A program made the translations under genes and the position numbers. Under the pieces are notes generated by a model, which had not been told where the DNA came from, did not search any database, and was given only the letters and a program-made list of their open reading frames with translations. Shown here one piece after another: positions 10,846 to 64,000 of a DNA stretch of 64,000 bases (positions within the stretch are counted from its first letter, which is position 1; the number at the start of each line of letters is the position of its first letter). The DNA comes from an uncultured Actinomycetes bacterium (lineage in GTDB: Bacteria; Actinomycetota; UBA4738; HRBIN12), in contig CAVVDF010000006.1 of the NCBI GenBank assembly GCA_963746995.1, forward strand, positions 100,993-164,992, read 5' to 3'.

Positions 10846-10862
10846 AGCCAGCGTAGCCCGGC

Positions 10863-16154: not shown

Positions 16155-16217
16155 GAGCCGAGTCTAGGTCGCTCCCGCCGACGCTCGCCCGTATCATCCA
16201 GCCGTGACCGAGCGTTG

Positions 16218-16763: not shown

Positions 16764-16784
16764 CACGCGACTCGGCCTCGCGTG
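16764..16784 (+). terminator. GC hairpin (cacgcg-N9-cgcgtg) immediately after the HD-gene stop
   Basis: Inverted repeat seen in the sequence. There is no U-tract, as is usual in high-GC genomes. Confidence 0.3.
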
Positions 16785-16797
16785 CCATCATCGCGGC

Positions 16798-18512: not shown

Positions 18513-18516
18513 GACG

Positions 18517-21027: not shown

Positions 21028-21154
21028 GCGGCCCCGGCCCAGCGCTCCTGGCTAGCTAGCGCGTCGCAGCTGAACGCGCGCGAGGCTCGGAGCCGCGCTG
21101 GTCTCGTCGTAGTGATCGAACGTCTCGCCGTCGCGAACGTTCACTGCGAGCGCT

Positions 21155-21567: not shown

Positions 21568-21592
21568 GCGCAGCATCCTAGCCGACGACCGG

Positions 21593-26101: not shown

Positions 26102-26239
26102 GTCTGCGAAGGGTGCCAGAAGGTCGTCATGGTGCGGAGATGTTCCCACGCGGCGCCGCTGCCGGTGCGGCGGAACGCGGGGTTGCGCGGACTGGACCGA
26201 CCGGACCATCATCCGCGGGTCGAGGACAGGAGGTAGGGG

Positions 26240-27391: not shown

Positions 27392-27439
27392 ACGCCGATC
27401 GATGGCGATCGACCCGCCCGGCGAGCTACGCCGACGCCG

Positions 27440-29150: not shown

Positions 29151-29202
29151 ATGGCCGCCGACGAGTACGGCTCGTTGCGCGGCGGGAAAGGATGACCCAC
29201 CG

Positions 29203-42425: not shown

Positions 42426-42449
42426 GCCGCGCAGCCTACCCAACGCCTG

Positions 42450-43489
42450 CTACGCGATGAACTCGAGGCGGTCGCGGTGCGCGGCCACCTGCTCCAGGAT
42501 GTCCGCGTCTGGTGTGTGATCGCGCTCGGGCTCCTCGACGTCGACCCGCTCACCGAACAACTCCCCCGATAGGTACCGCTGTCCGGTGTCCGGCGCGACC
42601 GTGACGATGCGCCGCAGCTCCGGGTGCTTGGTTGCGACCTTCAGCGCGGCGACGACGTTCATGCCGCTGGAGGGCCCGCACAACAGGCCTTCCTCACGCG
42701 CCATCCGGCGCGCCATCTCGAGCGACTCGGCGGTGCTGACCGTCACGATGCCATCGATCGCGGCCAGATCGAGGTTCCGGGGGATGATGCCGTCGCCGAT
42801 GCCCGGCACGCCGTGTGTGCCCCAGCGCTGGTCGCTGATCAGCGGGCACTCGGCGGGTTCGACCGCGTACGCCACGCACCGCTCGGTTCGTTCCGCTTGA
42901 GCACGTGCGTGACGCCGGTGATCCACCCGCCGGTGCCCTGCGCGGCGACGACCGCGTCAACGCTGCCGCCCAGCTGCTCCCAGATCTCCCGCCCGGAGGC
43001 TTCCTGCGCCTCGGGGTTATCCGGGTTGTCGAACTCTCCGGGGAAGAAGTAGCGGTCGGGGTCGGTCGCGACGATCTCGCGCATCCGCGCGAGCGCGAGG
43101 TCGATGTCGGTCCCGGCGCCCGGCGTGAGCTCCAACGTCGCGCCGTAGGCCTCGATCATGCGCTTGCGCTCCGGGCTCATGCCCTCGGGCATGACGATCG
43201 TGCAGTCGTACCCCTTGATCGCGGCGACCGCCGAGCATGCGATCCCTGCGTTGCCCGTGGTGCATTCGATGATGGTCATCCCCGGGCGCAACCTGCCCTC
43301 GGCCTCGGCCTTGCCGAGCATGTGCGCATAGATCCGATCCTTCACCGACCCTGTCGGGCCGTACCACTCGACCTTAGCGAACAACTCCAGGTCGGACGCG
43401 ACGCGCGCCAGCCGGACGAGCGGCGTTGCTCCGACCGCGTCCAGCAACGAGGCCACCGGACGCCTGCGCGCGTCCCACTCGACCGTCAC
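42450..43489 (-). pseudogene. cysteine synthase (PLP-dependent, CysK/CysM family), one frame disruption near 42900
   Basis: SD GGGAGGTGG 4 nt before GTG 43489. 'GPTGSVKDRI' PLP lysine motif and 'ECTTGNAGIA'. C-terminus in ORF 42450..42926. Confidence 0.75.
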
Positions 43490-44416: not shown

Positions 44417-45627
44417 ATGAGCGACGAACCGCAGCGCTACTGGCGTAACGCCGAGCCGAAGGATGCCTACGACGTGGTCATCGTGGGCGGCGGCGGGCAC
44501 GGCCTTGCGACGGCCTACTACCTCGCCAAGAACCACGGCATCACGGACGTCTGCATCGTCGAGAAGGGTTGGCTCGCCGGCGGCAACGTCGCCCGCAACA
44601 CGACGGTGATCCGCTCGAACTACCTGTGGGACGCATCCGCCGCGATCTACGAGCACTCCCTGAAACTGTGGGAGGGCCTCGAGGACGACCTCGACTGGGA
44701 TCTCCAGTTCGACCAGAAGGGCGTGCTGAACGTCTTGCACCACATCGGCGAGATGCGGAGCTCGAACCGGCGCGTCGAGGCGAACCACCTGCAAGGGGTC
44801 GACGCCGAGATGCTCGACGCGCAGCAGGTGAAGGAGTTCTGCCCGATCATCAACATCTCGCCCGACGTGCGCTACCCGGTGATGGGCGGCGCGCTGCAAC
44901 GGCGGGGCGGCACTGCCCGCCACGACCGGATCGCGTGGGCGCTCGCGACCCGCGCCAGCGAGCGCGGCGTGGACATCGTCGAACACGCGGAAGTCACGGG
45001 GTTCCTGCGCGGCGCGGGCGGATCTGTCACCGGTGTCGAGACAACGCGCGGCGCGATACGCGCAAACAAGGTCGCGCTCGTCGCGGCCGGCCATACGAGC
45101 GTTCTGGCGTCGATGGTCGGGCTTGCGGCTGCCCGTGCAATCGCACCCGCTGCAGGCTCTCGTGAGCGCGCTCTACGAGCCGGTCCTGAACTGCGTCGTG
45201 ATGTCGAACGCCGTGCACGTCTACGTCTCGCAGGCGGACAAGGGCGAGTTCGTGATGGGCGCAGGCATCGACAGCTACAACGGCTACGCACAGCGCGGCT
45301 CGTTCCACGTGATCGAGCACCAGATGGCGGCCGCCTGCGAGCTCTTCCCGATCTTCAAGCACGCGGCGCTGCTGCGCACGTGGGGCGGCATCGTCGACAT
45401 CTGCCCCGACGCGTCGCCGATCATCGATGTCGACACCGGTGCCGGGCTTGTTCCTCAACTGCGGCTGGGGCACCGGGGGCTTCAAGGCGACGCCCGGCAG
45501 CGGCTGGGCGTTCGCCGAGACCGTCGCGACCGGTGAGCAAGCCGAGCTCGCGAAGCCGTATGCGCTGGAGCGTTTCACGACCGGCGCGCTTATCGACGAG
45601 CACGGAGCGGCGGGGGTCGCCCACTGA
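44417..45627 (+). pseudogene. soxB: sarcosine oxidase beta subunit, two frame disruptions
   Basis: '[50 protein letters not shown]' and C-terminal '[20 protein letters not shown]'. Confidence 0.8.
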
Positions 45628-45968
45628 TGCGCGCCGCCACCGTCCGCACGTTCGCGCTGTCGCTGCCCGAGGCGGAGGAGCGCGAGACCTGGGGCAATGC
45701 GACGTTCCGCGTCAACTCGAAGATCTTCGCGATGTTCGGCGAGTCCGAGCGACATCTGTGGATCAAGTCCATGCACGACGAACAGCGCGCCTTGATCGCG
45801 ATGGATCCCGAGGCGTTCTTCGTGCCCTCCTACGTCGGGTCGAAGGGCTGGGTCGGCGTCGTGGTGTCGAAAGCCGATCGCGGCGAGGTCGAGGAACTGA
45901 TCACCGAAGCCTGGCGGCTCACCGCACCGAAGCGGCTCGTCGCGGCCTTCGACGAAGGGAGCCGCCTG
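45627..45968 (+). CDS. YjbR/MmcQ-family-like small protein inserted between soxB and soxD
   Basis: '[17 protein letters not shown]...[17 protein letters not shown]'. Reads through in frame into the soxD ATG. A TGA at 45967-45969 in the +1 frame overlaps that ATG. Confidence 0.45.
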
Positions 45969-46239
45969 ATGCTGCTGATCCGCTGCCCGTGGTGCGGCCC
46001 GCGCGACGAGATCGAGTTCCGCTACGGCGGCCAGGCGCATCTCGTCTATCCCGCCGACCCCGAGGCATTGTAGCGACGAGGAGTGGGCGGACTTCCTGTT
46101 CATGCGCGACAACCCGAAGGGCGAGTGGGCCGAGCGGTGGGTGCACAGCGCCGGCTGTCGGCGGTGGTTCAATGCGGTCCGCGATACGTCGACGCATCGA
46201 GTGGTCGCGACGTATCGGATCGGCGAGGAGCGGCCGTGA
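45969..46239 (+). pseudogene. soxD: sarcosine oxidase delta subunit, one frame disruption
   Basis: '[24 protein letters not shown]' then '[42 protein letters not shown]' in the +1 frame. Confidence 0.7.
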
Positions 46240-48846
46240 GCGGACGTCTCGTGACGCGGCGGCACCTGGCTCGACCGGTCGCGGCCGGTGACGTTCTCGT
46301 TCGACGGGCGGGACGTCGAGGCGTTCGCGGGCGATACCGTCGCGAGCGCATTCCTCGCTGCGGGCGAGCGCGGCGGGTTCGCGTCGCCGATCGCGGGGCG
46401 ACCACGCGGTGTGTTCTCGGCGGGCGTCGAGGAGCCGCACGCGTTCGTCGAGATCTCCGAACCGTGGTTCGAGCCCATCCGGCCCGCGACGATGGTCAAT
46501 GTCGTTGACGATATGGTCCTGCAGAGTCGCGCGGGCGTCGGCGTGCTGCCCGCCGACGACGACACGCCGCGCCCGTCGAGGCATACCTACCGGCACGTCG
46601 AGACACTGGTGATCGGCGCGGGCGCGGCCGGACGCGCGGCGGCCGTGGCGGCGAGCGGCCGCGTGCTGCTGGTCGACGAGCAGCCGGTCGTGTCGATTCG
46701 GCGCCCGACGGCGTCGAGACCCTCGCCGACACGACCGCGACCGGCATCTACGACGAGGGCTACGTCGTGTGCTACCAGCGGCGACGGCGAGCAGCGACGT
46801 GGTGCACCACGTGCGGGCGGAGCGCGTCGTGCTCGCGACCGGCGCGCACGAGCGGCCGATCGCGTTCGCGGGGAACGACCGACCGGGCGTGATGCTCGCG
46901 TCCGCGGCTCGCGCCTTCCTCGATCGGTTCGGCGTGCTCGTCGGCGAGCGGATCGTCGTCTTCTCGACGAACCACGCCGGGCACGAGGCGGCCGAAGCGC
47001 TCGCGGACTGCCGGCGCGCAGGTCGTGGTCGTCGACCCTTCAACCGGCGGGGGCGCGACCGAGCGGCTGCGCGCCGCCGGTGTCGAGGTGCGGACCGACG
47101 CCAGCGTCGTCGCGACGACGGCGACCCGGCGCTCGTGGGAGTGACGATCGCCTCGGCCCGACGGCTGGAGGACACGATCGAGGCGGACGTGCTCGCGGTG
47201 AGCGGCGGCTGGAATCCGACGGTCCAGCTCGCCCGCGGGATCGGTATCGGGCTCGCCTACGACGACGACAAGGCGTGCTTCGTCCACGACGGCACCGGGC
47301 CCGACGTGGCTCGAGGTCGTGGGCGGCGCGGCCGGCGACGTGCCGGCCTCGTTCCCGCTGTGGGTGGTGGACGAGGGGGATGACGCCGAGAAGTACGTCG
47401 AGCCCTTGCGTGACCAGACCGTCGCCGACGTCGCGCGCGCCGTTGCGGGCGGCCTGACGAGCGCCGAGCACGTGAAGCGGGCGACGTACATCGGCACGAC
47501 GATCGATCAAGGGCGCACGAGCGGGGTCCTGACCGCCGAGATCGTGAACACGCTGCTCGGCTGGGCCCCCGGCGCGCAGGGCCCGTCGAACGCGCGGCCC
47601 CCGTACACGCCGGTGCCGTTCTCGGCCCTCGCGGGACCGGACAGCGGACCGACCTGCTCGATCCGATCCGGGTCACGCCGCTCCATGCCTGGCACGAGGC
47701 CAACGGAGCCGTCTACGAGAACGTCGGGCAATGGAAGCGGCCGCGCTACTTCCCGGTGGGCGACGAGGATATGGATGCGGCCGTGGCTCGGGAGAGACGG
47801 GCCCTGCGCACGAGCGTCGGGGTCCTCGACGCGAGCACGCTCGGGAAGATCGAGGTCGTCGGTCCGGACGCCGGCGCCTTCCTCGACCGGATGTACACGA
47901 ACCGGATGTCGAACCTCGCCGTCGGCTCGATCCGCTACGGGCTGATGCTCGGGCTCGACGGGATGGTCTTCGACGACGGCGTCGCGATGCGCCTGGCCGA
48001 GGACCGATACCTCGTGTCGACGACGACGGGCGGCGCGGCCGCCGTCCTCGACCGGTTCGAGGAATGGCTCCAGTGCGAGTGGACCGACCTGCGGGTGTAT
48101 TGCACGAGCGTGACGGAGCAGTGGGCGGTCATCGCGGTCGGCGGCCCGAACGCCCGCGAGGTGCTGACCGCCGCCGGAACCGACATCGATCTCGACGAAC
48201 GACGCGTTCCCGTTCATGACGTTCCGGGAAGGGATCGGTCGCCGGCGTCCCGGCCCGTGTCTGCCGCGTCAGCTTCACCGGAGATCTGAGCTACGAGGTG
48301 CACGTCTCGCCGTGGCACGCGCTCGCCGTGTGGGAGGTGATGACCGAGCGGGCGCGCCGTTCGGCATCACGCCCTACGGGACCGAGGCGATGCACGTGCT
48401 GCGCGCCGAGAAAGGGTTCGTGATCGTCGGCCAGGAGACGGACGGCACCCAGACGCCCGACGACCTCGGGATGTCGTGGATCGTGAACACCGGCAAGGGC
48501 GACTTCATCGGCAAGCGTTCGCTCGTGCGCAGCGACACCCTTCGCGAGGATCGCAAGCAGCTCGTCGGTCTGCTGACCGAGGAACCCGCGTTCGTGCTTC
48601 CGGAGGGGACGCAACTGCTCGCGGCAGCCGCAGATCCCGTCGCCGCCGGCGCACATGCTCGGCTGGGTCAGGTCGTCGTATGCCAGCGAAGCCGCCGGTC
48701 GCAGCATCGCGCTCGCGCTCGTCGAGCGCGGGAGCGCGCGGTCGCGGCGAGACGATCTTCGCCGAGCTCGACGGCGGGACCACGGCCGGTCACGGTCACC
48801 GACCCGGTCTTCTACGACCCCGAGGGCGGCGAGCCGCGATGGCTGA
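46236..48846 (+). pseudogene. soxA: sarcosine oxidase alpha subunit, at least 6 frame disruptions
   Basis: GTGA overlap with soxD. 'TFSFDGRDVEAFAGDTVASAFLAAG', 'HVETLVIGAGAAG', GcvT-like '[27 protein letters not shown]' and '[11 protein letters not shown]'. Confidence 0.8.
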
Positions 48847-49356
48847 ACCACGGTCGCCCTTGGCCGGTCGCAGTGCGGACCTCGCATCACTCGAGGCGGT
48901 CGAGGTGCCGTTCCTGGCGCACGTCGACGTTCGGTGTGCGGAAGAGGATGCATCGCGTCTCAGCCTGCCGCTCGTGCCGAACACGGTCCAGGGCGACATG
49001 ACTCGCGGCATGTTGTGGCTGGGTCCCGACGAGTGGCTCGTCGTGGGCGTGCCGGGCACCGCCGAAGCGACCGTTGCCGAGTTCGAGTCCGCGCTCTGGG
49101 GTCGCATCATGCGGTCGTCGACGTGAGCGCGAATCGAGCGGTGATGGAGCTGCGCGGTGAGGGCCGGCTGGCGCTGCTGGCGACCGGGTGCTCACTCGAC
49201 CTGGATCCGCGCGGCGGGTGGGTGCCCGGGGTATGCGCGCAGACGCTGTTCGCGCGGGCGCAGGTGATCCTGCAGGAGCTGGAGGGTGCGACGCGCGTGT
49301 TCGTTCGGCCGTCGTTCGCCGGCTACGTCGTTGATCGACTCCTGGCCGCTCGCTAG
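48839..49356 (+). pseudogene. soxG: sarcosine oxidase gamma subunit, one frame disruption
   Basis: ATGGCTGA overlap with the soxA stop. '[22 protein letters not shown]' and 'VVDVSANRAVMELRGEG'. Confidence 0.65.
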
Positions 49357-51473: not shown

Positions 51474-53434
51474 GCCTTTCCGTCAAGCCGCGCCGGCGAC
51501 GACGGTCAGCACCTCTTCGCCGTACCGTTCGAGCTTCGCGGGACCGATCCCGTCGATCTCGAGCAATGCCGCCGACGACTCGGCTTGGCGTCGGCGATCG
51601 CCGCAAGCGTCTTGTCGTGGAAAACCACGTACGGCGGGACGCCGTCGCTCGCTCGCGCGGTCTCGCGGCGCCAGTGCGCAGCCGCTCGTACAACGGCTCG
51701 TCGCCCGTCCGGCACCGCGACCGTGCTTCTTCGGCTTGCTGGCATCGCCCTTGCTTCGGCACGTGGCCCGTCGCCTCGGCGACGAAGCCGACTCACCGGC
51801 GCGCGCGAGTCAGTCGGCCACGTGATCGCGAGCCAGTGCCGCGCTCGCGTGATGCCCGACGTAGAACAGCCGACGCTCCTCCTGCGGGTCGGCGACGCTC
51901 CGGCCGCTCTTGTACGGAAGCTCGCCCTCGAGCAGCCGCGGCAGGAACACGACGTCGAACTCGAGACCCTTGGCCCGGTGGTAAGTGAGCAGCTGCACGC
52001 CGCGTCCCGACTGCTCGACCGAGAACCGCCTCGGCAGCTCCTCGAGGAACCCCGCCATCGTGGCGTCGTCGCCGTGCGCGGCTCGCGTACTCGGCGGCCA
52101 TCGCGCGCAGGCGCCCGAGGTCGGACTGCCGCGTGACCTCCTCCTCGGCGTCGGGCGTGCGGTCGGGTCGTAGCCGAGCGCGCGGTGATCGCCTCGACCA
52201 CGCCCGTCGACCCGGCCTTCGGCCGCACGACGGAGCCGCGCCAGTACCGCTCGGGCGGCCGGCCGTTGCAGGAACGCACCGGTCCGCACCTGATACGGGA
52301 TGCCTGTCGCGGCGAACGCCTCCTCGAACGGCTCCGTCCGGGCGTTCATCCGCAGCAGGATCGCGAGACCCTCCCAGGCGCACGCCCTGCTCGTGCACGG
52401 CCGCGCTCTGGTGCCACGATCCAGGCGACCTCGGCCTCCTGCGACGCGAACGGCTTTGCGATCGGCGCGGGCCCGTCCGGCCGCGTCGCTCGCAGCTCCT
52501 TGCGGAAGCCCCCGAGCTTCGGCGGCGAGTCGGTTCGCCAGCGCCAGGACCTGCGGCGTCGAGCGGTAGTTCTCCTCGAGGCGAACGACCCGCGCCTTCG
52601 GAAATCGGTCGGGGAAGGCCAGCAGGTGCGACGGTGACGCGCCGGTGAACGCGAAGATCGTCTGGTAGTCGTCGCCGACGACGCACAGCTCGTCGCGGCC
52701 GCCGAGCCAGCGGTCGAGCAACGCCGACTGCAGCGGGTTCACATCCTGGAACTCGTCGACGGTGAACGCCGCGAACCGCTCGCGCACGAGCTGCGCGGCC
52801 TCCGGAGTGGTCGTCGAGCATGCCGGACCGCCAGCCCGAGCATGTCCTCGAAGTCGAGCACGCCGCTGCGCGTCCTTCCGGCGCTCGTAGTTCCGGAAGA
52901 GCGCCGTCCATCAGCTCGGCCGGGATCGGCGGCTCGTGCTCCTCGGTCGTCGAGCGCGGCGAGGTACGTCGTCGGGCGCGATCATCCGGTTCTTCGCCCA
53001 CTCGATCTCGCCGGCGAGCTCGCGGCGCGGCAGGAACTTGTGCGGCGGCGGAAGCGCGTTCGCGAGCGGCGTCGAGCAGCCGGGCCTTGTGGTCGAGCAC
53101 CTCGGGCAAGCGGCTCGCCGCGCGAACCGCTCGTAGAGGCCGCTCAGCTGTGCGAGCGCCGCGGCGTGGAACGTCCGCGCCTCGACGCCTTCGACACCGA
53201 GGGCGGCAAGGCGTTCGCGAAGCTCGCCCGCCGCCTTCTGCGTGTAGGTGACCGCCAGGATCTGCTCGGGCGGGAAGGTGCCGCTCGCGACCTGCCACGC
53301 GATGCGATGCGTGATGGTGGTGGTCTTGCCGGTGCCGGCGCCGGCGAGGATCGCGACCGGGCCCGCGGACGGCCTCGGCCGCCTCGCGCTGGGCAGGGTT
53401 CAAACCCTCGAGGATCGCGGTCGGCGTCGGTCAT
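51474..53434 (-). pseudogene. UvrD/PcrA-type ATP-dependent DNA helicase with C-terminal HRDC-like region, at least 5 frame disruptions
   Basis: '[12 protein letters not shown]', Walker A '[17 protein letters not shown]', 'FTVDEFQDVNPLQ' (DExx), 'LTYHRAKGLEFDVVFLP', HRDC-like 'VPPYVVFHDKTLAAIA...IDGIGPAKLERYGEEVL'. Confidence 0.7.
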
Positions 53435-53475
53435 GCGCCGCGAGGCTAGCAACGACCTCGGACAGGCCGCAGGCG

Positions 53476-53696
53476 CTACTCGGTGCCGGCGATCTCTTTG
53501 TCCATCTGCGCGAGTTCTTCCGCGTCGGGAAGGAATTCCGCCTGCTCGGCGGGGCCGATCGGCACGCCCTTCTCGATCAGGCCGGCTTCGCGGTCCTTGT
53601 TGCGCTGGGCACGCTCTTCACGGCGGGCCTCGTCGGGCCGCCTGCTTCTTCGCGTTCGCATCGCGACGCGCGCGCTTGCCATAGGAGTCGGGCATG
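53476..53696 (-). pseudogene. small Arg/Lys-rich conserved hypothetical protein (~72 aa), one frame disruption
   Basis: 'MPDSYGKRARRDANAKKQAA' then, after a shift, 'ARREERAQRNKDREAGLIEKGVPIGPAEQAEFLPDAEELAQMDKE'. Confidence 0.35.
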
Positions 53697-53736: not shown

Positions 53737-54617
53737 TCAGGCTGAAGTTCGTCGCCGAGCATGCGGCGCTGCCAGTCGGCGGTGTTCGGCACCTGGTTGA
53801 ACGTGAAGACGTGCAGCGCCTGCACGTCGGCGACGCGGGTCGGCGAGCGTCGGCGCGAGCGCCTCGAGGAACGCGTCCGGTCCGAACGAGCCCCTCTTCA
53901 TCAGGTGGCCGACCATGCTCTTGTTCTTCTTGAGGTAGCGGGCCGAGTCGGCGACGCCGATCCGGGCGCTGATCGTCATGAGCTTGGTGAGCTCCGCCAC
54001 GCCGGGCACGCCGAGGTGCAACGGGAGCGTGATGCCGTCGGCGCGCATCCGGGCGAGCCACGACGACGACGGCGCGCGGGTTGAAGCACATCTGCGTCGT
54101 CATCGCGGTGGCGTATCGCTGCTTGTCCTTCAGCGCCTGCAGCAGGACGTCGTCGGCGATGTCGGGGTGGCCCTCGGGGTAGCTCGGCACGCCGATCTCG
54201 GTGAACGGGTGGCCGAGCTCGTCCATCGCCTGCAGCAGGTGCAGCCCGTCGTGGAACATGCCGTTGTCCTTCGCGTCGCCGCCGACCACGAAGACCTTCG
54301 TGATACTGCGCCGCGCGCGCGCGGTCGAGCAGCTCCTGCAGATGCGCCCGGTCGCGGGTCATGTGTGCGGACAGGTGCGGCGTCACGTCGTGGCCGCGGG
54401 CGGCGAGCGCCTCGCAGAGGTCGAAGGTCGCCTCGATCCCGTGGCTCGGCGAGGCGGTCACGGTCACCGCGGCGCCGGGCGGCAGCGCCTCGCACTTGGC
54501 CATGACCGAGTCCAGCGGGATCAGCTCGTACTTGGCGTCGGCGACCAGCCGCTTGAGCGCGGCGCGCTGATCCTCCGTCAGCTCGGCCTTCGCCTTCTTC
54601 CAGAACATCCAGCTCAT
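53737..54617 (-). pseudogene. methylenetetrahydrofolate reductase (MetF/MTHFR family), at least 3 frame disruptions
   Basis: 'VTVTASPSHG', 'VPSYPEGHP', 'TQMCFNP', 'HVFTFNQV' (matching the FHFYTLN block). Confidence 0.65.
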
Positions 54618-54705
54618 CGCACGTGTCCCTCGGTCCGGAACCGGCGGTCATGATGCCGTATCGGCAGCGCACGCGACCGTGCAACCGGCCAACGGAACTC
54701 CGAGG

Positions 54706-56254
54706 TCAGGCGTTCGAGTCCGGGAAGCTCGCCTTCTTGCGGTCGATCCACTCGCGGAGCTCCTCGTCCTTCGCCTCGTCCAGCGGCGGGGCGACGTACT
54801 CGGCGAGCATCTGCTTCCAGATCGCGTTCGCGCGCTGGGCGGCGTCGAGCGAGCCATCGAGCTCCCACTGCTCGAAGGAGTTGTTGTCCGCGACGCTCGA
54901 CCGGTAGAAGGCGGTCTCGAAGTTGGCGAGGGTGTGCGCCGTGCCGAGGAAGTGCGTGCCCGGCTCGTTCGCGAGGATCGCATCGAGCGCCTGGCCGTTC
55001 TCCGACAGGTCCATGCCCTTGGCGAACTCGTGCATCTGGCCGCACTGGTCGAGGTCGAGGATGAACTTCTCGTAGCCCATCGCGAGGCCGCCCTCGAGCC
55101 AGCCCGGCGGCGTGCAGCACGAAGTTCACGCCGGCGAGGATCGTCGGCTGCAGCGTGTTGGCGCACTCGTAGGCGGCCTGGGCGTCGGCGACCTTCGATG
55201 CGGTGAGCGACCCGCCGCTGCGGAACGGCACGCCGAGCCGCCGGGCGCACGCGGCGAGCGCGTAGAGGATCAGCGCGGGCTCGGGCGTGCCGAACGTCGG
55301 CGCGCCGGACTGCATCGACATCGACGACGCGAACGAGCCGAACACGACCGGCGCGCCGGGCCGGACGAGCTGGACGTAGGCCATGCCCGCCATCGCTTCG
55401 GCGAGCGTCTGCGCGGCGGCGCCGGCCGGCGGTCGCGGGCGACATCGCGCCGGCGAGGATGAACGGGGTCATCAGCACCGCCTGGTTCGCCTCGGCGTAG
55501 GCCTTCGCCGCGCCGAGCATGATCGAGTCCCACACGAGCGGGCTGTTCGCGTTGCACAGGCTCAGGATGTACGTGCGCTCCTCGAGCGCGTCGGCGCCGA
55601 ACAGGATCCGCGCCATGTCGACGGTGTCGCGCGCGCGGAGCGGATGCGTGACCGAGCCCATGAACGGCTTGTCCGAGTACTTCATGTGCGCGTAGACCAT
55701 GTCGTAGTGCCGCTTGTTCACGGGCAGGTCGACCGGCTCGCACACCGTGCCGCCGGAGTGGTGCAGGAACGGCGTCACGTACGCGAGCTTCACGAAGTTC
55801 CGGAAGTCCTCGATCGTGCCGTAGCGGCGGCCGCCGTCGAGGTCGCGCACGAACGGCGATCCGTAGGCCGGCGCGAGCACGGTCGCGTTGCCGCCGAGGT
55901 GCACGGTGTTCGCCGGGTTGCGCGCGAACTGGTCGAACTCGCGCGGGGCGGTCGCCTGGATCAGCTGGCCGCGCCAGCCCGCGCGGGAACCGCACCCGCT
56001 CGCCGTCGACGTCGCAGCCCGGCCTCCGCAGGAGCGTGAGCGCGTCGGGCACCCCGCGGAAGTCGATGCCGACCGTCTCGAGGATCGTGTCGGCGTTGTG
56101 CTCGATCGTCGCGAGACCCTCCTCGGAGAGGATCTCGACCGGGGTCAGCGTGCGGGTGATGAACGGAACCTTCTCGGCCACCTCGGCGAGGCGGGCGGCG
56201 CGGCGGCCCTCGCGGCCGCCGGTACGGCGGCCGCGAGCTCTGGGTGTCGCTCAT
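54706..56254 (-). pseudogene. MttB-superfamily (trimethylamine-methyltransferase-like) corrinoid-dependent methyltransferase, probably a quaternary-amine (glycine-betaine type) member; at least 5 frame disruptions
   Basis: 'KVPFITRTLTPVEILSEEGLATIEHNADTILETVGIDF', 'YAHMKYSDKPFMGSVT', 'NANSPLVWDSIMLGAAKAYAEANQAVLMTPFILAGAMSP', C-terminus 'FILDLDQCGQMHEF...ELREWIDRKKASF'. Confidence 0.7.
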
Positions 56255-58249
56255 GCGGTGCTCCTTCCTCGGGTGGAACGACGGCGGCGGCCGCCTCCGG
56301 CGGCCGCCGCCTCACGGGCGGGAAGCTCGACGTGCGCGCCGAGGCGCGGGAACGGATCGGTGGCGTGCGGGATCCCCATCGCGCCGACGAAGTGCTCCTG
56401 GAACCGCGGCTCGGTGGCGGTCTCGATCTTCTCGACGCGCCGGACGACCTCCTCGATCTCCTCGCGGGCGGCGCGGTTGAGCAACGCGATCCGGGCGCCG
56501 GTGCCGGCGGCGTTGCCGGCGCTCGTCACGTTCGCGGGCTCGCAGTCCGGGACCAAGCCGAGCACCATCGCGTGCACCGGGTCGATATGCGCGCCGAACG
56601 CGCCGGCGAGCCGGATCCGATCGACGGTCTCGATGCCGTAGTGGTCCATCAGCAGGCGGCAGCCCGCGTAGAGGGCCCCCTTCGCCAGCTGGATCTGGCG
56701 GACGTCGTTCTGGGTGAGCACGAGGCGCGGCTCGGCCTCGTGGATCACGTAGGCGTACGTGCGGCCGTCCTCGATGACGCGGTCGGTGCGTTCGGCCGCG
56801 GCGGCATCGATCACGCCGTCGGTGGTGAGGACGCCGGCGAGGTAGAGCTCGGCGATCAGCTCGATGATGCCGGAGCCCGCGACGCCGGTCGGTGTCGGCG
56901 CGCCCGGCTCGTCGGACCAGACGTCGCTGCCGATCGTGCGGTAGCGCAGCGCGAGCGTGTCGCGGTCGATGCGCACGCGCTCGATCGCCCCCGGCGCCGC
57001 CCGCTGCCCGCTCGAGATCTGCGCGCCCTCGAACGCAGGGCCGGTGGGGCTCGACGCGGCGAGCAGCCGATCGCGGTTCCCGAGCACGATCTCGGCGTTC
57101 GTGCCGACGTCGACGATGAGGTTGACGGCGTCCTGATCGTGCGGCGCCTCCGACAGGATCACGCCCGCCGTGTCGGCGCCGACGTGGCCGGCGATCAGCG
57201 GCAACGCGTACACGCGCGCGCCGGGGTTCGCCGTCGACGCCGAGATCGCGCGCCGGCACGGTCAGCGCCTCGTCGGTCACGAGCGCGAACGGCGCGCCGC
57301 CGAGCTCGGTCGGGTCGAACCCGAACACGAGGTGATGCATGATCGGGTTCCCGACGACGACGAGCTCGAGGATGTCGTCGCGCGACGCGTCGGCCTGCTC
57401 GCAGAGCTCTCCCACCAGCTGGTCGAGGCAGCTCCCGCACGGCCGCGGTCAGCTCGACCTCGCCGCCCGGGTGCATCATCACGTAGCTCACCCGGCTCAT
57501 CAGGTCCTCGCCGAACCGGATCTGCGGGTTCATCGCGCCGGCGCTCGCGAGCACGTCGCCGGTGTGCAGATCGCACAGGTGCCCCGCCACCGTCGTCGAG
57601 CCGACGTCGAACGCCACCCCCAGCGCGACATCGTGGAACCCGGGGAACACCGCGGTGATCAGCGAGCCGTCGCGCACTGCCACCGTGGCGGTCCAGGCGC
57701 CGGCGCGGAGGGTCTGCTGCAGTCCGGGCAGCACGACTGGGTTCGACTGCAAGCCGGTCAGCGCCCAGTCGCGCTCGAGCGCCGCGAACAGGCGCTGGAG
57801 GTCGCCGCTCGGCGTCTCGAGCGACGGCTCATCGACCTCGACGTAGTGCAGCCGCACCACCGGGTCGACCTCGATCGGGTGCGCGTCGGCCTCCTTGCGC
57901 ACGACCTGCCGGTGGATCTGCGACTCCGGCGGCACGTCGATCACGAGATCGCCGCAGATCTTGGCGTGGCAGCCGAGGCGGCGATCGGCCGCCAGCCCGT
58001 CGCGCTCTCGGTAGCGCTCCTCGGGCTCGGTGAACGCGATCAGGTGGTCGGCCGCGCTCGTGATGCCGTGCTTCGGGAACGAGCCCTCCATCGGCACGAC
58101 CTGGCAGCGGCCGCAGATCCCGCGTCCGCCGCAGACGGAGTCGAGGTCGACGCCGAGGGAACGAGCCGCGTCCAGCACGCTCGCGCCGTCGGCGACCTCG
58201 CCGCGGCGGCCCGACGGCGTGAAGACGATCGTGTGGCGGGCGCGCTCAC
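56251..58249 (-). pseudogene. RACo-type reductive activator of corrinoid protein (N-terminal 2Fe-2S ferredoxin + ASKHA ATPase domain), at least 3 frame disruptions
   Basis: 'DLDSVCGGRGICGRCQV' plant-type ferredoxin motif. 'VAFDVGSTTVAGHLCDL' ASKHA phosphate-1. 'LIVDVGTNAEIVLGN'. ATGA overlap with the mttB-like start. Confidence 0.65.
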
Positions 58250-59173
58250 GACTCCGCCTGCGTGCCCAGCCGTGCTGCGCGGCCGCCGCGGCGGCGGCCA
58301 GCCACCCTCGGCGGCTGTCGGCGGCCGCGCGATCCGCGTACCGGCGGATCCACGCCTCCGCGTGCGCGTCGGTTCCCATCAGCACGTCGGCGGCCATCGT
58401 CGCCTGCTTCACCTCCTCATGCAGCGGCGACGTGATCGCGCTCGTCATGCCGCACGCGATCGCCATCGACAGGAACGCGCCGTTGATCCCGTTGCGGTTC
58501 GGCAAGCCCGAACGACACGTTCGAGGCGCCGCAGGTCGTGTTCACGCCGAGCTCGTCCTGCAGCCGCCGCACCAAGCGGAACACCTGCTGGCCCGCCGTG
58601 CGCATCGCGCCGATCGGCATCACGAGCGGGTCGACGACGACGTCGTGCGCGGGGATGCCGTGGTCGGCCGCCGCGTGCACGATCTTCTCCGCGATCCCGA
58701 ACCGCACGTCGGGGTCCTCGCTGATGCCGGTCTCGTCGTTCGTGATCGCGACGACCGCGGCGCCGTACTTCGCGACGAGCGGCAAGCACGCTCTCGATCC
58801 GCTCGTCCTCACCGGTCACCGAGTTGACGAGCGGCTTGCCCTGATAGACGGCGAGCCCCGCCTCGAGCGCGGCGACGATCGAGGAGTCGATCGACAGCGG
58901 CAGGTCGGTGAGCGACTGCACGAGCTTGACGGTCTCGGCGAGGATGCCGGGCTCGTCGGCGAGCGGGATACCGGCGTTCACGTCGAGCATGTGCGCGCCC
59001 GCGCGCACCTGCGCGTCGACGTCGGCGATCACGGTCGAGAAGTCGCCGGCGGCCATCTCGGCGGCGAGCTTCTTCCGGCCGGTCGGGTTGATCCGCTCCC
59101 CGATGATCGTGAACGGCCGGTCCGAACCGATCACGTGCTCCCGGGTCGCGGAGGAGACGAGCGTGTCGGCCAT
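58246..59173 (-). pseudogene. pterin-binding methyltransferase (methylcorrinoid:tetrahydrofolate methyltransferase, MtgA/MtrH-like), at least 2 frame disruptions
   Basis: 'FTIIGERINPTGRKK', 'GAHMLDVNAG', 'VNSVTGE', 'GLPNRNGINGAFLSMAIACGMTSAI'. Confidence 0.65.
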
Positions 59174-59362
59174 CAGGTGGAGCACCCGTGTCGCATACGA
59201 GTGATGATGGCGTCTGGCGTTGCGCCTTCAACGCGCACGTTGCGCATCCGGCAACGGCAGGTCGGACGGCACCTCGGAACGTCGGCTGCCAGCCCCGCGT
59301 GATGAGCAAAGCGAACCATCGTCAGATACTGATGGCAGCGTTCGACCGAGGGAGGCACGAAG

Positions 59363-60273
59363 ATGGATCAGACGCCGATCCCGACGGACGGCTCGCCCTC
59401 CGCATGCACGCGCCCGGTGACCCGCCGGTCTCGCTCTGGACGCACTGCCGGTGCCGCCGTTGGACCGGGCGAGGCGCTCGTCCGGGTCCGGGCGGCCGCC
59501 ATCACGCGCGACGAACTCAGCTGGCCGGTGGACCGTCTTCCCGCGATCCCGTCCTACGAGGTGTCCGGCGTCGTGGTCGCGGTCGCGCCCGATGTCCGGA
59601 CCTGCGCGGTCGGCGACGCGGTATTCGCGCTGACGCCGTTCGACCGCGACGGCGTGGCCACGACGTACGCCTCCGTACCGCCGCATGCCCTCGCGCCCAA
59701 ACCGGCCGCACTCGACGACGTTCGAGAGCGCCGCCGTGCCGATGGCGGGGCTCACCGCGTGGCAAGGGCTCTTCGCGATCGGGGAGCTGCAGCGGGGGAA
59801 CGGGTGCTGATCCACGGCGCTGCCGGCGGGGTCGGACACATCGCGACCCAACTTGCCATCTGGCGGGGCGCGTACGTGATCGGGTCCGCAACGGGCGCCG
59901 GGGTGGAGGCAGCGCGCGCGCTGGGTGCCCACGAAGCGATCGATCGAGCCACTTGGCGGTTGGACGACGTCGCGCCGGTCGACCTCGTGTTCGACACCGT
60001 CGGCGGCGACATGCTCGCTCGCTCCCCCGAGATCCTCGCGAAGACCGGCAGGCTCGTGTCGATCGCCGAGGAGATGCCCGAGGGTGTCGCCGGGTCCTAT
60101 TTCATCGTCGAGCCCGATCACGAACAACTCCTGGAGCTCGGCAGGCTCGCCGACGCTGGGGCGATCGCGCCGCGATCGACTCGGTGTTCCCGCTCGCCGA
60201 CGCCGAGAAGGCGTTCGAACGCGTCATGTCCCCGGGCAAACAGGGGAAGGTCGTCTTGGAGGTCCAGGCGATG
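59363..60273 (+). pseudogene. zinc-binding alcohol dehydrogenase / NADPH:quinone reductase family oxidoreductase, at least 3 frame disruptions
   Basis: 'GPGEALVRVRAAAI', 'RVLIHGAAGGVGHIATQLA', C-terminus 'KAFERVMSPGKQGKVVLEV'. Confidence 0.6.
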
Positions 60274-61056
60274 ACGACACAGGCAGAGAAAGGTGCCGCC
60301 TTCCGGGCGCTCCACCTGAGCGAACCGTTCGTGATCCCGAACCCGTGGGACGCGGGGTCCGCCCGCGTGCTCAAGGGCTGGGCTTCCGTGCACTCGCCAC
60401 GACGAGCTCAGGGGCCGCGTTCACCCTCGGCAAACCCGACGGCGCCATGACGATCCGACGAGATGGCCGCGCACGTAGCCGCGATCGCCAGCGGCGACCG
60501 ACATCCCGTTGTCCGTGGACCTCGAGAACGGCTACGGACCGTCTCCGCACGATGCGGCCACCGCGATCGTCCAGGCTGCTGCGGCCGGCGCCGTCGGCGG
60601 GTCGATCGAGGACTGGGACCGCGAGGGATACCTCTACCCGATCGAGCACGCGACCGAGCGGATCGCAGCCGCCGCGGAGGCAGCTCGCGGATCGTCGGTG
60701 CCGTTCGTGTTGACGGCTCGAGCCGAGAACCACATCCGCGGCAACCACAGACCTGGATGACACCATCCAGCGGCTGACACTCCTATGCGGCCGCCGGAGC
60801 CGACGTGCTGTTCGCGCCGGGTCTTCGAGGCATGGACGATATCCGTCGGCTGTGTGCGGCCGTCGACAAGCCCGTGAACGTCCTCGCGCAGCCGGGGATG
60901 TCGATGGCGGAGATCGTGGCTGCGGGGGCGCAACGTGTAAGTGTGGGCGGCGGGCTCACCTGGACGGCGGCGACGGCGATGATGGAAGCCGCGACCGCGA
61001 TCCGCGACCGAGGCGACTTCTCGGGGCTCGGCCGCAGGTCCTCGCTCCCCGAGTAG
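60271..61056 (+). pseudogene. isocitrate lyase / PEP mutase family protein (2-methylisocitrate-lyase-like), at least 3 frame disruptions
   Basis: 'FRALHLSEPFVIPNPWDAGSARVL', 'DLENGYG', C-terminus 'MLFAPGLRGMDDIRRLCAAVDKPVNVL'. Confidence 0.6.
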
Positions 61057-61104
61057 CGAGGGCCCTGCCAGACCGCACGAACGGGGTGACGCGATACGTT
61101 GCCC

Positions 61105-61452
61105 TCAGTCCGCGCTCGGACGGATCGCCTCGACCTCACCTGCCACGTCCTCGCCGCCCTTGTAGCCGCCGGCTCGGATCGCCTGTTTGAGCGCGTCCTC
61201 GGTCCACTCGGCAAGCACCGCTTCCTCGGCCGCGCTCGCCTCGGCCTCGAGGTCCTCGCCGACCGCGCTGCGGTCCATCGCCATCTGCTCGGTGTAGTCG
61301 TCGGAGCCGATCAGGCCCGCCACCATCGCAGCCGCGTCGACGGCCTCCTGGAACCGCTCGGGCAGCAGCCGACGCGCCGAGCCGCCCGCGTCGTCGCGCA
61401 CGACGATCTGCATCGGGATGTCGCGCCACTTGATCACCGTGAGCTCGGCCAT
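61105..61452 (-). CDS. hypothetical small protein (115 aa) immediately downstream of the corrinoid protein gene
   Basis: ATG 61452 lies 2 nt after the corrinoid-protein stop. 'MAELTVIKWRDIPMQIVVRDD...'. Confidence 0.45.
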   Translation of the reverse strand: MAELTVIKWRDIPMQIVVRDDAGGSARRLLPERFQEAVDAAAMVAGLIGSDDYTEQMAMDRSAVGEDLEAEASAAEEAVLAEWTEDALKQAIRAGGYKGGEDVAGEVEAIRPSAD

Positions 61453-61454
61453 CC

Positions 61455-62153
61455 CTAGGCCACCCCCGCAGCGGCGCGCTTGGCCATCACGAGCGCCTGC
61501 GCCGTCTCGGCCGCCACCGCCGCATCGCGGCAATACGCGTCGGCGCCGACCGCCTTGCCGAACTCCTCGTTCAGCGGCGCCCCACCGACCATGACGATGT
61601 ACTTCTCGCGAAGACCCTTCGCCTCGAGCTCGTCGATCACGACCTTCATGTACGGCATCGTCGTGGTGAGCAGGGCGCTCATCCCCAGGATGTCGGGCTG
61701 ATGTTCCTCGAGCGCCGCCAAGTAGTTCTCGACCGGGTTGTTGATGCCGAGGTCGACGACCTCGAACCCGGCGCCCTCGAGCATCATCGCGACGAGGTTC
61801 TTGCCGATGTCGTGGATGTCGCCCTTCACGGTGCCGATCACGACGGTGCCCACCCGCTCGGCGCCCGTCTCCGCGAGCAACGGCCGCAGCAGGGCCATGC
61901 CCGCCTTCATCGCGTTCGCCGCGAGCAGCACCTCCGGCACGAACAAGATGCCGTCGCGGAAGTCGATGCCGACGATCCGCATGCCCTCGACCAGCGCGTC
62001 GTTCAAGACGCGGTCCGCCGCCCAATCCCGGTCGAGCAGGATCTGCGTGCCCTCTGCGATCTCGTCGGCCAATCCGTCGTAGAGGTCGTCGTGCATCTGC
62101 TTCACGAGGTCCTCGTCGGACAACGCGGACAGCACGATCTCGTCGTCGCTCAT
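61455..62153 (-). CDS. cobalamin (corrinoid)-binding protein, MtgC/MttC-like
   Basis: Intact 232 aa. B12-binding 'GTVKGDIHDIGKNLV' (DxHxxG) and an N-terminal cap helix domain. Confidence 0.85.
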   Translation of the reverse strand: MSDDEIVLSALSDEDLVKQMHDDLYDGLADEIAEGTQILLDRDWAADRVLNDALVEGMRIVGIDFRDGILFVPEVLLAANAMKAGMALLRPLLAETGAERVGTVVIGTVKGDIHDIGKNLVAMMLEGAGFEVVDLGINNPVENYLAALEEHQPDILGMSALLTTTMPYMKVVIDELEAKGLREKYIVMVGGAPLNEEFGKAVGADAYCRDAAVAAETAQALVMAKRAAAGVA

Positions 62154-62158
62154 GTTCC

Positions 62159-64000
62159 TCAGCCCTTCAGTCGTTCACCCTTGGGATCGAACAGCGGATC
62201 GGCCGTGACCGTCGCGGCGTACCGCACGCCGAAGTACTCGACCTCGACCGGCGTGGCCTCTACCGCGATCGCGGCCGGCAGATAGCCATAGACGATGCCT
62301 CGCCCGATCGAGAACCCGTAGTTCGCGCTCGTCACGTAGCTCACGACCCGGCCGTCGTGCCAGATCGGCTCCTTGCCCAGCACCACCGTCCGCGGGTCGT
62401 CGAACGTCATCGCGACCAGCCGCTTCGCCGGTCCCTCGTCGCGGATCCGCTCCAATGCCGGCTTGCCCTGGAAGTCCTTGTCCCACTTCATCGCGAAGCC
62501 GAGACCCGCGCTGATCGGGTCGTACTCGGGGTTGATGTCCTGTCCCCACAGGCGATAGCCCTTCTCCAGCCGAAGCGAGTCGAAGGCGCCGAGCCCCGCA
62601 GCGATCAGCCCGTGCTCGCGTCCGGCCTCCCACACCGTGTCCCAGAGCCGTTGACCCATCTCGACCTGCCCGTACAGCTCCCAGCCGAGCTCGCCGACGT
62701 AGCTGATCCGCTGGGCATAGATCGGGGTCTCGCCGACGTTGATCTTGCGCCACGTCATATACGGGAACGCATCGTTCGACAGGTCGTCGTCGGTCGACCG
62801 CTTGCACGATGTCGCGTGCTCGCGGTCCCCAGATCCCGAGCGTGAAGGACTGGCCCGTCCGGTCCTCGATCGTCGACCCGCTCGTCGTCGCGTTGCTGCG
62901 CCCGGATCCACGCTTGGTCGTGCATGCCGGAGCCGCCGCCGGTGACCAGCTGGAACGCGTCGTCGTCGAGCCGCGCGATCACCACGTCGCAGCGGATCCC
63001 GCCGTGCGCGGTCAGCACACTCGTGTACACGAGCGAGCCCACCGCGCGATCCATCCTGTTCGTACAGAGACGCTCGAGGAACGACAGAGCGTCGGGGCCA
63101 TGGATCAGGAGCTTCACGTACGGCGTGATGTCGAACAGCCCGGCGCGCTCGCGGACCGCAAGGTGTTCACCGCCCTCGATCGGCGACCATTCCCTGGCTG
63201 CCCAGCCGCCGCGGCGCGCCCACTCGTGCGTCACGCCCTCCACGTCCTCGCGGTTCGCATCGAACCACTGCGGACGCTCCCAACCGGCGCCGGTGACGAA
63301 GTGAGCCCCGAGCTCCGCGTGTCGCGCGTGGAACGGCGTCAGCCGAAGGCCACGCGGTTTCGCCGGCTGTTGCCGCGGGTGCAGGATGTCGTAGACCTCG
63401 CGGTACTGCTGCTTCCCTCGCTCGATCACGTACGGCGCCGTCGTTTGGAACGGATAGAACCGGTTCGCGTCGGCCTCGGCCAGGTCGTAGCTCGGCTCGC
63501 CGTTCACCATCCATTCGACCGCTTGCCGAGCCATGCCGCCGGCGTGCGTGACCCAGACCGCCTCGCAGACCCAGATGCCGCGCGTGGTTGCGCTCTCCCC
63601 GACAACCGAGCCGGCATCCGGCGTGAACGAGAACATCCCGTTGAGGGTGCGCTCCGGGTCGCTCGGCCGGGTCGTCCCCGCGAGCGCGGGGAACATCCGC
63701 AACGTCTCCGCCTCGCACAGATCGAAGTCATCGGGTGTGAACGGCATCAGCGAGGGCTGCATCGCGGCGCCGGGTGCCCGGATGTCACCCTGCGGGGTGA
63801 CGATCGGCTCGTGCCGGTAGTTGCCGACGCCGAAGTGGTCGTCGCGCTGGCGGAAGTAGAGCGACATGTCCTGGTGGCGCACGACCGGCTGCTCCGCCCA
63901 GTCGAGCCCGCCAAGTACGGGTACGGGGTCGGTCCACACGAGCTGGTGCTGCACCGCGACGAGCGGGATCGGCACGTCCGCCATCGCGCCGACGGTCGGA
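62159..64000 (-). pseudogene. second dimethylglycine oxidase/dehydrogenase-family gene (FAD + GcvT-like domains), 5'-truncated by the window edge, one frame disruption near 62900
   Basis: 'GLFDITPYVKLLIHGPDALSFLERLCTNRMD' and C-terminus 'FGVRYAATVTADPLFDPKGERLKG'. The ORF is still open at 63984. Confidence 0.7.

Follow-up and report, generated by a model that had tools for sequence, protein, structure and literature searches.

A probable cobalamin-dependent glycine betaine demethylation cluster in an uncultured actinomycete, carried on a frameshift-rich metagenome contig

The stretch of DNA analysed here, called the window throughout, comprises 64,000 nucleotides of contig CAVVDF010000006.1 from an uncultured, high-GC Actinomycetes metagenome-assembled genome (MAG; GenBank assembly GCA_963746995.1). 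The region between 53.7 and 64 kb is probably the site of a cobalamin-dependent system of aerobic type for glycine betaine demethylation, together with the enzymes of the next two demethylations, and the frameshifts that break up most of its genes are most likely, for the greater part, insertions made during assembly. Corrinoid-dependent conversion of glycine betaine to dimethylglycine, then to sarcosine and finally to glycine is the best reading of the cluster, because its MttB homolog has a leucine at the pyrrolysine position, is 44% identical to MtgB of Desulfitobacterium hafniense and has orthologs in glycine betaine and choline contexts. A first-pass annotation, made from the letters alone, had proposed a complete route of this kind with every methyl group passed to tetrahydrofolate; the proposal is upheld as the best reading, and the nearest relatives keep the DMGDH, sox and MTHFR genes adjacent to the module.

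The GC content of the window is ∼69% and raw lists of open reading frames (ORFs) consist mostly of spurious frames. Coding frames were picked by third-position GC content (GC3), and the frame pieces were joined and scanned with Pfam. Between 53.7 and 64 kb they lie mainly on the minus strand and switch phase every 300–500 bp. All six minus-strand module components named by the first-pass annotation were recovered on the joined frames, and the counterparts of mtgB, mtgC and mtgD all fall within 7.5 kb. Frameshifts interrupt nearly all of these genes, and in the module intact ORFs are confined to the corrinoid protein and PF13769. The genes of the region are as follows.

53737-54617, minus strand: MTHFR-like (MetF2-like) gene; PF02219, 36 bits, cut-off 24
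54706-56254, minus strand: MttB-superfamily methyltransferase, MtgB-like; PF06253, 713 bits
∼56251-58249, minus strand: RACo-type reductive activator; RACo_linker 78, Raco_middle 150 and RACo_C_ter 297 bits
∼58246-59173, minus strand: pterin-binding methylcorrinoid:tetrahydrofolate methyltransferase, MtgA/MtgD-like; Pterin_bind, 97 bits
∼59364-60285, plus strand: zinc-type dehydrogenase/QOR; ADH_N, ADH_zinc_N_2; frameshifted
∼60286-61057, plus strand: PEP-mutase/isocitrate-lyase-family gene; PEP_mutase; frameshifted
61105-61452, minus strand: small PF13769 ('Virulence_fact') protein; Pfam, 53 bits; intact
61455-62153, minus strand: corrinoid protein, MtgC-like, 232 amino acids; B12-binding_2 and B12-binding; intact
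62162-64000 and past the window end, minus strand: DMGDH/DMGO-like flavoprotein; DAO, FAO_M, GCV_T, GCV_T_C

The match of the MttB homolog to PF06253 (713 bits, cut-off 25) spans profile positions 3–500 of 500, and the homolog has no in-frame stop once the 1-bp insertions are taken out. Its placement was judged from pairwise scores to MtgB, to PDB entry 4YYC, to the Sinorhizobium meliloti and Azoarcus orthologs and to the pyrrolysine-containing MttB. The highest-scoring solved structure is 4YYC (665 bits, residues 3–495), followed by D. hafniense MtgB (PDB 2QNE/9YCE; 394 bits, 44% identity), whereas the pyrrolysine-containing MttB (PDB 7XCL) is matched at 88 bits and over the C-terminal half only. 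The entry 4YYC, titled 'putative trimethylamine methyltransferase', shares the motif HAAGWLEGGL; its depositors record no function, so that it serves as a fold template and not as an assignment. The residue aligned with the pyrrolysine of 7XCL is a leucine, as it is in D. hafniense MtgB, and TIGR02369, the equivalog model for pyrrolysine-dependent MttB, is missed (223 bits, cut-off 525). On these alignments the protein is a non-pyrrolysine member of the superfamily rather than a pyrrolysine enzyme, as the first-pass annotation had held; no in-frame TAG is found and leucine stands where pyrrolysine would. ARAGORN detects no tRNA genes in the 64 kb, tRNA-Pyl included, and no Rfam family is found in the window, among them no cobalamin, glycine or tetrahydrofolate riboswitch. 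The MttB ATG at 56254-56252, with GGAAGGAG upstream, overlaps the stop codon of the activator gene as ATGA, and the corrected ORF is 92.6% identical to that of L002, a short-read MAG that is the closest relative at the DNA level (∼85% identity).

The partners expected of such a methyltransferase are encoded alongside it, as orthologs of S. meliloti MtgB (61% identity), MtgC (78%) and MtgD (63%) occur together in the window. The counterpart of MtgC in S. meliloti is a cobalamin-binding protein (locus L082, 10662-11360). In the corrinoid protein of the window the DxHxxG motif reads GDIHDIG in translation, and the best NCBIfam model is 'glycine betaine-specific corrinoid protein MtgC', matched at 207 bits against a cut-off of 370; TIGR02370 gives 171 bits, below its 215-bit cut-off. 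The ratio of nonsynonymous to synonymous substitution rates (dN/dS) for this gene against L002 is 0.06. The Pterin_bind protein exceeds the threshold of NCBIfam NF005719 (351 bits, cut-off 259), has the S. meliloti methyltetrahydrofolate:cobalamin methyltransferase as its 63% identical counterpart, and ends in a stop codon that overlaps the GTG start of the RACo-type gene as GTGA. The RACo-type protein has all three RACo domains, linker, middle and C_ter, above their cut-offs, while its NCBIfam matches, AcsV-like at 347 bits and the RamA subfamily at 118 bits, both fall below theirs. Its N-terminus displays a 2Fe-2S-like cysteine motif, CGGRGICGRC...C, with a below-cut-off match to fdx_isc (27.7 bits), and a weak Fer2 match appears in the ortholog of L001, a long-read MAG. 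The corrected ORF of 665 amino acids is 89% identical to that of L002, and the S. meliloti ASKHA protein matches it at 56% identity. Between the MTHFR-like protein and a partial L002 ortholog the amino acid identity is 88.7% (dN/dS 0.12). The protein belongs to its family by Pfam only, and with no blastp match at E ≤ 1e-3 to the S. meliloti MTHFR it is of a different lineage from the enzyme of that system.

A protein search with the MttB homolog returned at least 8000 candidates, the best matches listed being 80–90% identical and 512–516 amino acids long, and a scan of species-representative genomes confirmed at least 587 relatives. Those listed include Actinomycetes, Gaiellales, Thermoleophilia, Chloroflexia, Limnocylindrales, Acidobacteriota and many Proteobacteria. 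Genes near MttB were counted in the 56 related loci of at least 15 kb, termed long loci below.

RACo: 45 of 56
Pterin_bind: 41 of 56
Corrinoid protein: 40 of 56
PF13769: 34 of 56
MTHFR: 27 of 56
DMGDH: 9 of 56
sox genes: ∼8–10 of 56

The same module recurs in about 40 of the 56 long loci, as it does in the contigs that carry the nearest homologs; the arrangement is not due to chance. The two best-documented relatives share the order DMGDH, corrinoid protein, PF13769, Pterin_bind, RACo, MttB, MTHFR, and in both contigs soxG-A-D-B, an IclR gene and a PALP gene lie close to the module; in the contig of the closest relative an OpuAC-type binding protein also adjoins the cluster. Adjacency of DMGDH and sox is chiefly a feature of the nearest actinobacterial relatives of the window. 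Among annotated replicons, orthologs of the MttB homolog with 60–68% identity are present in Azoarcus, Paracoccus and Sinorhizobium. The S. meliloti ortholog is accompanied by genes for the cobalamin-binding protein, a DUF1638 protein, a PF13769 protein, MTHFR, the methyltetrahydrofolate:cobalamin methyltransferase and the ASKHA protein, in a locus that also holds bmt and a glycine betaine ABC transporter. The Azoarcus ortholog (68%) adjoins folD, a choline-binding protein gene, betA and betB. The identities of the genes, their synteny and their orthology to the S. meliloti cluster are direct observations, as is the leucine at the pyrrolysine position. MttB orthologs are 68–77% identical across at least four phyla. 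The high identity between phyla, 78% for MtgC of this actinomycete and S. meliloti, suggests horizontal spread or unusually strong constraint.

The PF13769 gene belongs to this conserved pattern. It adjoins the corrinoid gene in 34 of the 56 long loci, in the contigs of two protein relatives (P0001 and P0016) and in the S. meliloti cluster, where the equivalent, annotated as 'virulence factor' (L082 7111-7413), is 38% identical. No relative of the protein was found in the PDB, and a literature search found no paper tying PF13769 to corrinoid methyltransferases. The gene is a conserved accessory of the module, and its product may be an unrecognised accessory factor.

The later demethylations would draw on the DMGDH-like gene at the end of the window and on genes further upstream. 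The terminal gene lies within the window for the C-terminal ∼610 of ∼840 amino acids; its product has the DAO, FAO_M, GCV_T and GCV_T_C architecture and is 79% identical to the L002 ortholog (dN/dS 0.17), dimethylglycine specificity being putative. A soxBDAG operon and a second DMGDH-like gene, which the first-pass annotation had placed upstream, were found again by tblastn and Pfam, the former next to the IclR and PALP genes, whose synteny with the cluster is kept in the nearest relatives.

44417-49350, plus strand: soxB, yjbR-like gene, soxD, soxA, soxG; tblastn with L001 proteins, 47–80% identity
43503-44288, minus strand: IclR-family regulator; tblastn against L001, 70% identity; intact
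42456-43489, minus strand: PALP-fold enzyme; tblastn against L001, 77–81% identity; one frameshift
18168-21153, minus strand: second DMGDH-like gene; DAO, FAO_M, GCV_T, GCV_T_C; in at least 11 pieces

All four SoxBDAG subunit genes stand in one operon and all four are frameshifted, each of soxB, yjbR, soxD, soxA and soxG being split over two to four frames by tblastn. The second DMGDH-like gene is 30–47% identical to the L001 DMGDH (tblastn).

Taken together, these components would operate as follows. A single N-methyl group would be taken from glycine betaine by the non-pyrrolysine MttB-family protein and loaded onto the DxHxxG corrinoid protein in its Co(I) state, leaving dimethylglycine, and the pterin-binding methyltransferase would hand the methyl group on to tetrahydrofolate. 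Methyltetrahydrofolate would then be converted to methylenetetrahydrofolate by the MTHFR-like enzyme, while corrinoid adventitiously oxidized to Co(II) would be re-reduced by the RACo-type ASKHA protein, with its putative 2Fe-2S domain, at the expense of ATP. A DMGDH-like flavoprotein would turn dimethylglycine into sarcosine and SoxBDAG would turn sarcosine into glycine, the C1 units of both steps passing to tetrahydrofolate through the GCV_T folate domains. As the sarcosine oxidase is O2-dependent, an aerobic lifestyle is suggested. The substrate, the direction of flux and the oxygen tolerance proposed here draw on gene context and on published roseobacter genetics. In Ruegeria pomeroyi an aerobic system of MtgBCD, MetF2 and RamA is documented by mtgC and mtgD knockouts and by glycine betaine-induced MtgB and MetF2 (PMC12478193); glycine betaine acts there as the inducer of a pair of PF06253 proteins, of a MetF paralog and of RamA (Mausz et al. 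PNAS 2025, PMC12478193). A Phaeobacter inhibens mtgB1 gbcAB double mutant does not grow on glycine betaine (bioRxiv 10.64898/2025.12.19.695462).

Glycine betaine as the substrate of the MttB homolog is supported by orthology and context, and the active site speaks on both sides of the question. In D. hafniense MtgB, Y97 and F356 (cation–pi) and R312 and H348 (carboxylate) are required for glycine betaine binding; an F356L variant has a Km raised ∼800-fold, and MttB-family enzymes that act on different substrates diverge at the aromatic pair (Picking et al. JBC 2026, PMC13080624). In the 9YCE/2QNE alignment the equivalents of Y97, R312 and H348 are conserved in the window protein, and those of the carboxylate-binding R312 and H348 are kept in 81 of 81 members of its clade. 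Several points weigh against the glycine betaine reading. F356 aligns to a glycine in all 81 clade members, so that by linear alignment the Y97 and F356 pair of D. hafniense MtgB is not reproduced. None of the counterparts of MtgB, MtgC and the activase reaches the NCBIfam equivalog level, and a literature search found no biochemical or genetic data on Actinomycetota members of the clade. Roseobacters, moreover, hold up to seven MttB paralogs of unassigned substrate (PMC12478193), so that the specificity of the clade is putative. The motif that surrounds the replaced residue is H-x-AGWLEGGL in the clade (81 of 81) against HTAGILQYFM in D. hafniense MtgB, with an invariant tryptophan four residues upstream of the glycine, and the Y/R/H/W/G pattern at the five positions is identical in 81 of 81 related loci from Actinomycetota to Proteobacteria. 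The replacement of F356 is a clade-wide trait and not a defect of the window copy; the clade tryptophan may or may not act as a stand-in. The first-pass placement in the glycine-betaine-type subgroup is borne out by the scores to MtgB and pyrrolysine MttB (394 against 88 bits) and by the contexts of the orthologs, and is left unsupported at F356.

The same substitution is an argument for a different substrate. The MttB homolog might act on another methylated amine, such as choline, proline betaine, carnitine, gamma-butyrobetaine or another quaternary amine, in which case the proximity of DMGDH and sox genes would reflect general C1 and osmolyte catabolism and MttB would not catalyse the first step of glycine betaine breakdown. 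The low counts of DMGDH and sox among the long loci and the occurrence of several paralogs in aerobic carriers fit this alternative, as does the lack of an equivalog-level family match. The three retained binding residues, Y97, R312 and H348, speak for glycine betaine, and the nearest Actinomycetota relatives keep DMGDH directly upstream of the corrinoid gene. The betA and betB genes that flank the Azoarcus ortholog make glycine betaine, the neighbourhood of the S. meliloti ortholog includes bmt and a glycine betaine transporter, and the NCBIfam model nearest to the corrinoid protein is the glycine betaine-specific MtgC. Another amine is for these reasons judged an unlikely substrate.

A second alternative concerns the partners rather than the methyltransferase: the corrinoid and pterin-binding proteins could mainly, or also, form a split cobalamin-dependent methionine synthase of the MtgC, MtgD and MtgE type, a role that would not exclude demethylation. 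Both MtgC and MtgD are indispensable for the synthesis of methionine as well as for glycine betaine catabolism in R. pomeroyi and P. inhibens, and the window contains one gene for a PF02574 homocysteine S-methyltransferase (9518-10849, minus strand; 232 bits; frameshifted). This protein was considered as an MtgE ortholog and rejected, as it is 24.5% identical to S. meliloti Bmt/MtgE. Its gene lies 45 kb from the module and has a counterpart in none of the 56 related loci, and the module is embedded in catabolic genes (DMGDH, sox and MTHFR-like), which makes methionine synthesis an improbable main or additional function here. A membrane protein gene may come after the PF02574 gene.

The glycine betaine reading further depends on how the broken frames are understood. 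About 13 frameshift events fall in 5.4 kb of the cluster, nearly all of them window-specific 1-bp insertions, the insertions being judged window-specific by multiple alignment with four to seven relatives. The individual events, all on minus-strand genes, are these.

MTHFR-like gene: +1 frameshifts near 54300-54309, 54068 and 53827-53830; tblastn frames -3, -1, -2, -3 with an L001 query
MttB gene: 1-bp insertions near 56242, 55969, 55429 and 55102; the last three unique against six to seven relatives
RACo gene: 1-bp insertions near 57431 and 57234; that at 57431 clean in the multiple alignment
RACo gene: apparent 1-bp deletion near 58242, just after the GTG start; junction read directly
Pterin_bind gene: 1-bp insertions near 58784 and 58504; multiple alignment
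Pterin_bind gene: 19-nt window-specific insertion, net +1, near 58308 in the variable C-terminal tail
Terminal DMGDH-like gene: +1 frameshifts near 62872 and 62795; tblastn frames -2, -3, -1; that at 62795 clean in the multiple alignment

The fourth MttB insertion follows the start codon (AGC GAC ACC [C] AGA), and the removal of one C yields MSDTRARGRR, against MSETRARGRR in the closest homolog. Twelve single-base deletions suffice to give stop-free ORFs for MTHFR, MttB, RACo, Pterin_bind and DMGDH, three of them in MTHFR and two in DMGDH, and the restored ORFs are co-linear with intact orthologs; the RACo start and the Pterin_bind tail require two further corrections. Against L002 every net frame change between 54.0 and 59.2 kb is +1 in the window, and over all alignable cluster genes and soxA there are 15 window-specific single-base insertions for two single-base deletions. 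Some 100 candidate frame changes, for the most part single-base insertions, were noted over the 64 kb, an overestimate that includes true gene boundaries; the picture resembles an indel-rich long-read consensus.

The most likely explanation, judging from this spectrum, is that a long-read metagenome assembly introduced the frameshifts, mainly as erroneous single-base insertions, and they are probably not the result of biological inactivation. Under the latter, real frameshifts would have recently turned the glycine betaine, dimethylglycine and sarcosine genes and several other operons into pseudogenes amid gene loss, with neighbours that are still needed remaining intact. The distribution of the events would suit such selective decay and counts against a uniform error: frameshifts are patchy, roughly by operon, being dense at 16.7–32, 45–49.4 and 51.5–59.5 kb and almost absent from 32.8–44.3 kb, where acyl-CoA dehydrogenase, sugar ABC transporter, ROK, GcvT-like, amidase and IclR genes are intact. 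At a mean density of about one event per 0.6 kb, a uniform rate would be very unlikely to leave 9.6 kb without any. Uneven polishing or strain heterogeneity is a possible cause of this patchiness. At least one event, at the 5' end of the RACo gene, moreover resembles a deletion and sits poorly with insertion errors.

Other observations speak for error. Natural bacterial insertions and deletions are known to be deletion-biased and variable in length, whereas those of the window are almost exclusively single-base insertions. No genuine nonsense codon was found in ∼7 kb, GC3 is still 0.93–1.0, and dN/dS against L002 ranges from 0.06 to 0.29 across the cluster genes. At sites where five outgroups agree, private amino acid changes number 47 in the window and 51 in L002 (p = 0.76), so the window branch shows no rate acceleration. 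Frameshifts also affect the sox genes, a UvrD-type helicase gene and many unrelated genes. When relatives were sorted by contig names into long-read and short-read styles, frame changes in Pterin_bind, RACo and MttB appeared in seven of 31 of the former and in none of 22 of the latter. The RACo ortholog of L001 (8003-10004) is called as two ORFs of 231 and 427 amino acids, which amounts to a frameshift like those of the window. An exact copy of the corrinoid protein is recorded on one NCBI/ENA contig of 621,606 bp, for which we infer the sequencing platform. Pseudogenization as the main explanation is thus very improbable and is rejected on the insertion spectrum, the lack of nonsense codons, dN/dS, the relative-rate test and the contrast between long-read and short-read assemblies. 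In an assembly so rich in indels, gene calls and inferences of pseudogenes drawn from the window are unreliable.

The first-pass annotation had also called attention to an unusual layout, in which two opposite-strand genes part the corrinoid gene from mttB, RACo and the pterin methyltransferase gene. The QOR and PEP-mutase genes do separate them; the layout is nonetheless a local event and not a different architecture. The segment 59173-61127 is a 1.95-kb insertion relative to L002: by blastn the two sequences are co-linear on both sides, L002 positions 3599 and 3634 flanking the gap, and it follows that the two genes are a lineage-specific insertion, which splits the ancestral operon. The stop codon of PF13769 and the start codon of Pterin_bind are ∼4 bp apart in L002, and the QOR and PEP-mutase pair occurs in none of the 56 long loci. 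The edges of the insertion give repeat matches at chance level only and nothing that would point to a transposon or a target-site duplication, and a consensus scan of the region found no promoter or terminator matches. The same PF13769/Pterin_bind junction holds a PhdYeFM/PIN toxin–antitoxin pair in the closest protein relative (P0001 contig) and is empty in L002 and L001; it is a recurrent insertion spot within the operon.

The rest of the window contains further genes for amine and C1 metabolism and a helicase gene next to the module.

39851-40996, plus strand: stand-alone GcvT-like aminomethyltransferase; Pfam; intact
41007-42443, minus strand: amidase; intact
51500-53600, minus strand: UvrD/Rep-type helicase with HRDC domain; many frame pieces
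16194-18196, plus strand: HD-domain and beta-eliminating lyase (tryptophanase-like)
21490-22676, minus strand: aldehyde dehydrogenase
23891-25252, minus strand: alanine dehydrogenase
26051-30117, plus strand: ABC transporter

The GcvT-like and amidase genes have the sugar ABC transporter/ROK unit on one side and the PALP/IclR/sox block on the other, and the GcvT-like gene is the third folate-dependent demethylase-type gene in the window. On the contig of the closest relative the syntenic helicase gene is intact and encodes 646 amino acids. Around the second DMGDH-like gene, the stretch from 16 to 30 kb forms a heavily frameshifted amine and amino acid catabolic neighbourhood, whose ABC transporter is binding-protein-dependent (SBP_bac_8 and BPD_transp_1 by Pfam).

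The cluster is closest in composition to the aerobic MtgBCD systems. As in those systems, a PF06253 methyltransferase goes together with a corrinoid protein, a pterin-binding methyltransferase, an activase of the ASKHA type and an MTHFR paralog, and genes for dimethylglycine and sarcosine demethylation are co-located. With the S. meliloti cluster it also shares a PF13769 gene and 56–78% identity between orthologs; in many Proteobacteria, S. meliloti included, mtg genes co-locate with genes for dimethylglycine and sarcosine demethylation (PMC12478193). It differs in its host, an uncultured high-GC Actinomycetes MAG, and in its organization as a single compact operon, here interrupted; neither the cluster nor the neighbourhoods of its two closest relatives showed a DUF1638 gene, and no MtgE ortholog lies nearby in the window. 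With the anaerobic MtgB/MtgC/MtgA system of D. hafniense (DSY3156) it has in common the leucine at the pyrrolysine position, Y97, R312 and H348, a three-component logic and tetrahydrofolate as methyl acceptor. Unlike that system, it has the glycine at F356 within the altered motif and a host that is probably aerobic; methyltetrahydrofolate would be oxidized by the MTHFR-like enzyme and dimethylglycine degraded further, whereas the anaerobe excretes dimethylglycine. The MttB of Methanosarcina barkeri (7XCL) shares the PF06253 family and the logic of a corrinoid partner, and differs in having an amber codon in place of the leucine; its alignment to the window protein is partial, and the window protein misses the TIGR02369 model.

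The setting had been called largely uncharacterised for this chemistry, a claim that does not hold, given the aerobic MtgBCD, MetF2 and RamA system established in R. pomeroyi (PMC12478193) and the number of relatives of the cluster. A literature search found no paper describing the cluster in Actinomycetota specifically; Actinomycetota account for ∼5% of ocean mtgC reads (PMC12478193). The cluster is an actinobacterial copy of a known, widespread B12-dependent system, which soil MAGs from several phyla commonly carry. It represents no new kind of system: the replacement of F356, the PF13769 partner and the MtgC identity are features of the clade and not of this locus. A possible, though tentative, extension is that the MttB clade of Actinomycetota, Chloroflexota, Acidobacteriota and Proteobacteria (68–90% identical) consists of distinct oxygen-tolerant betaine methyltransferases, with a pocket rebuilt around the tryptophan and with PF13769 as an accessory factor.

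On the glycine betaine reading, B12-dependent catabolism of this compound would extend from marine Proteobacteria to uncultured soil Actinomycetes, and in these lineages the whole pathway to glycine would be held in one compact and widely conserved cluster. This would be of use in the annotation of soil metagenomes, where such genes still carry the label 'trimethylamine methyltransferase', and in estimates of the demand for cobalamin in soil.

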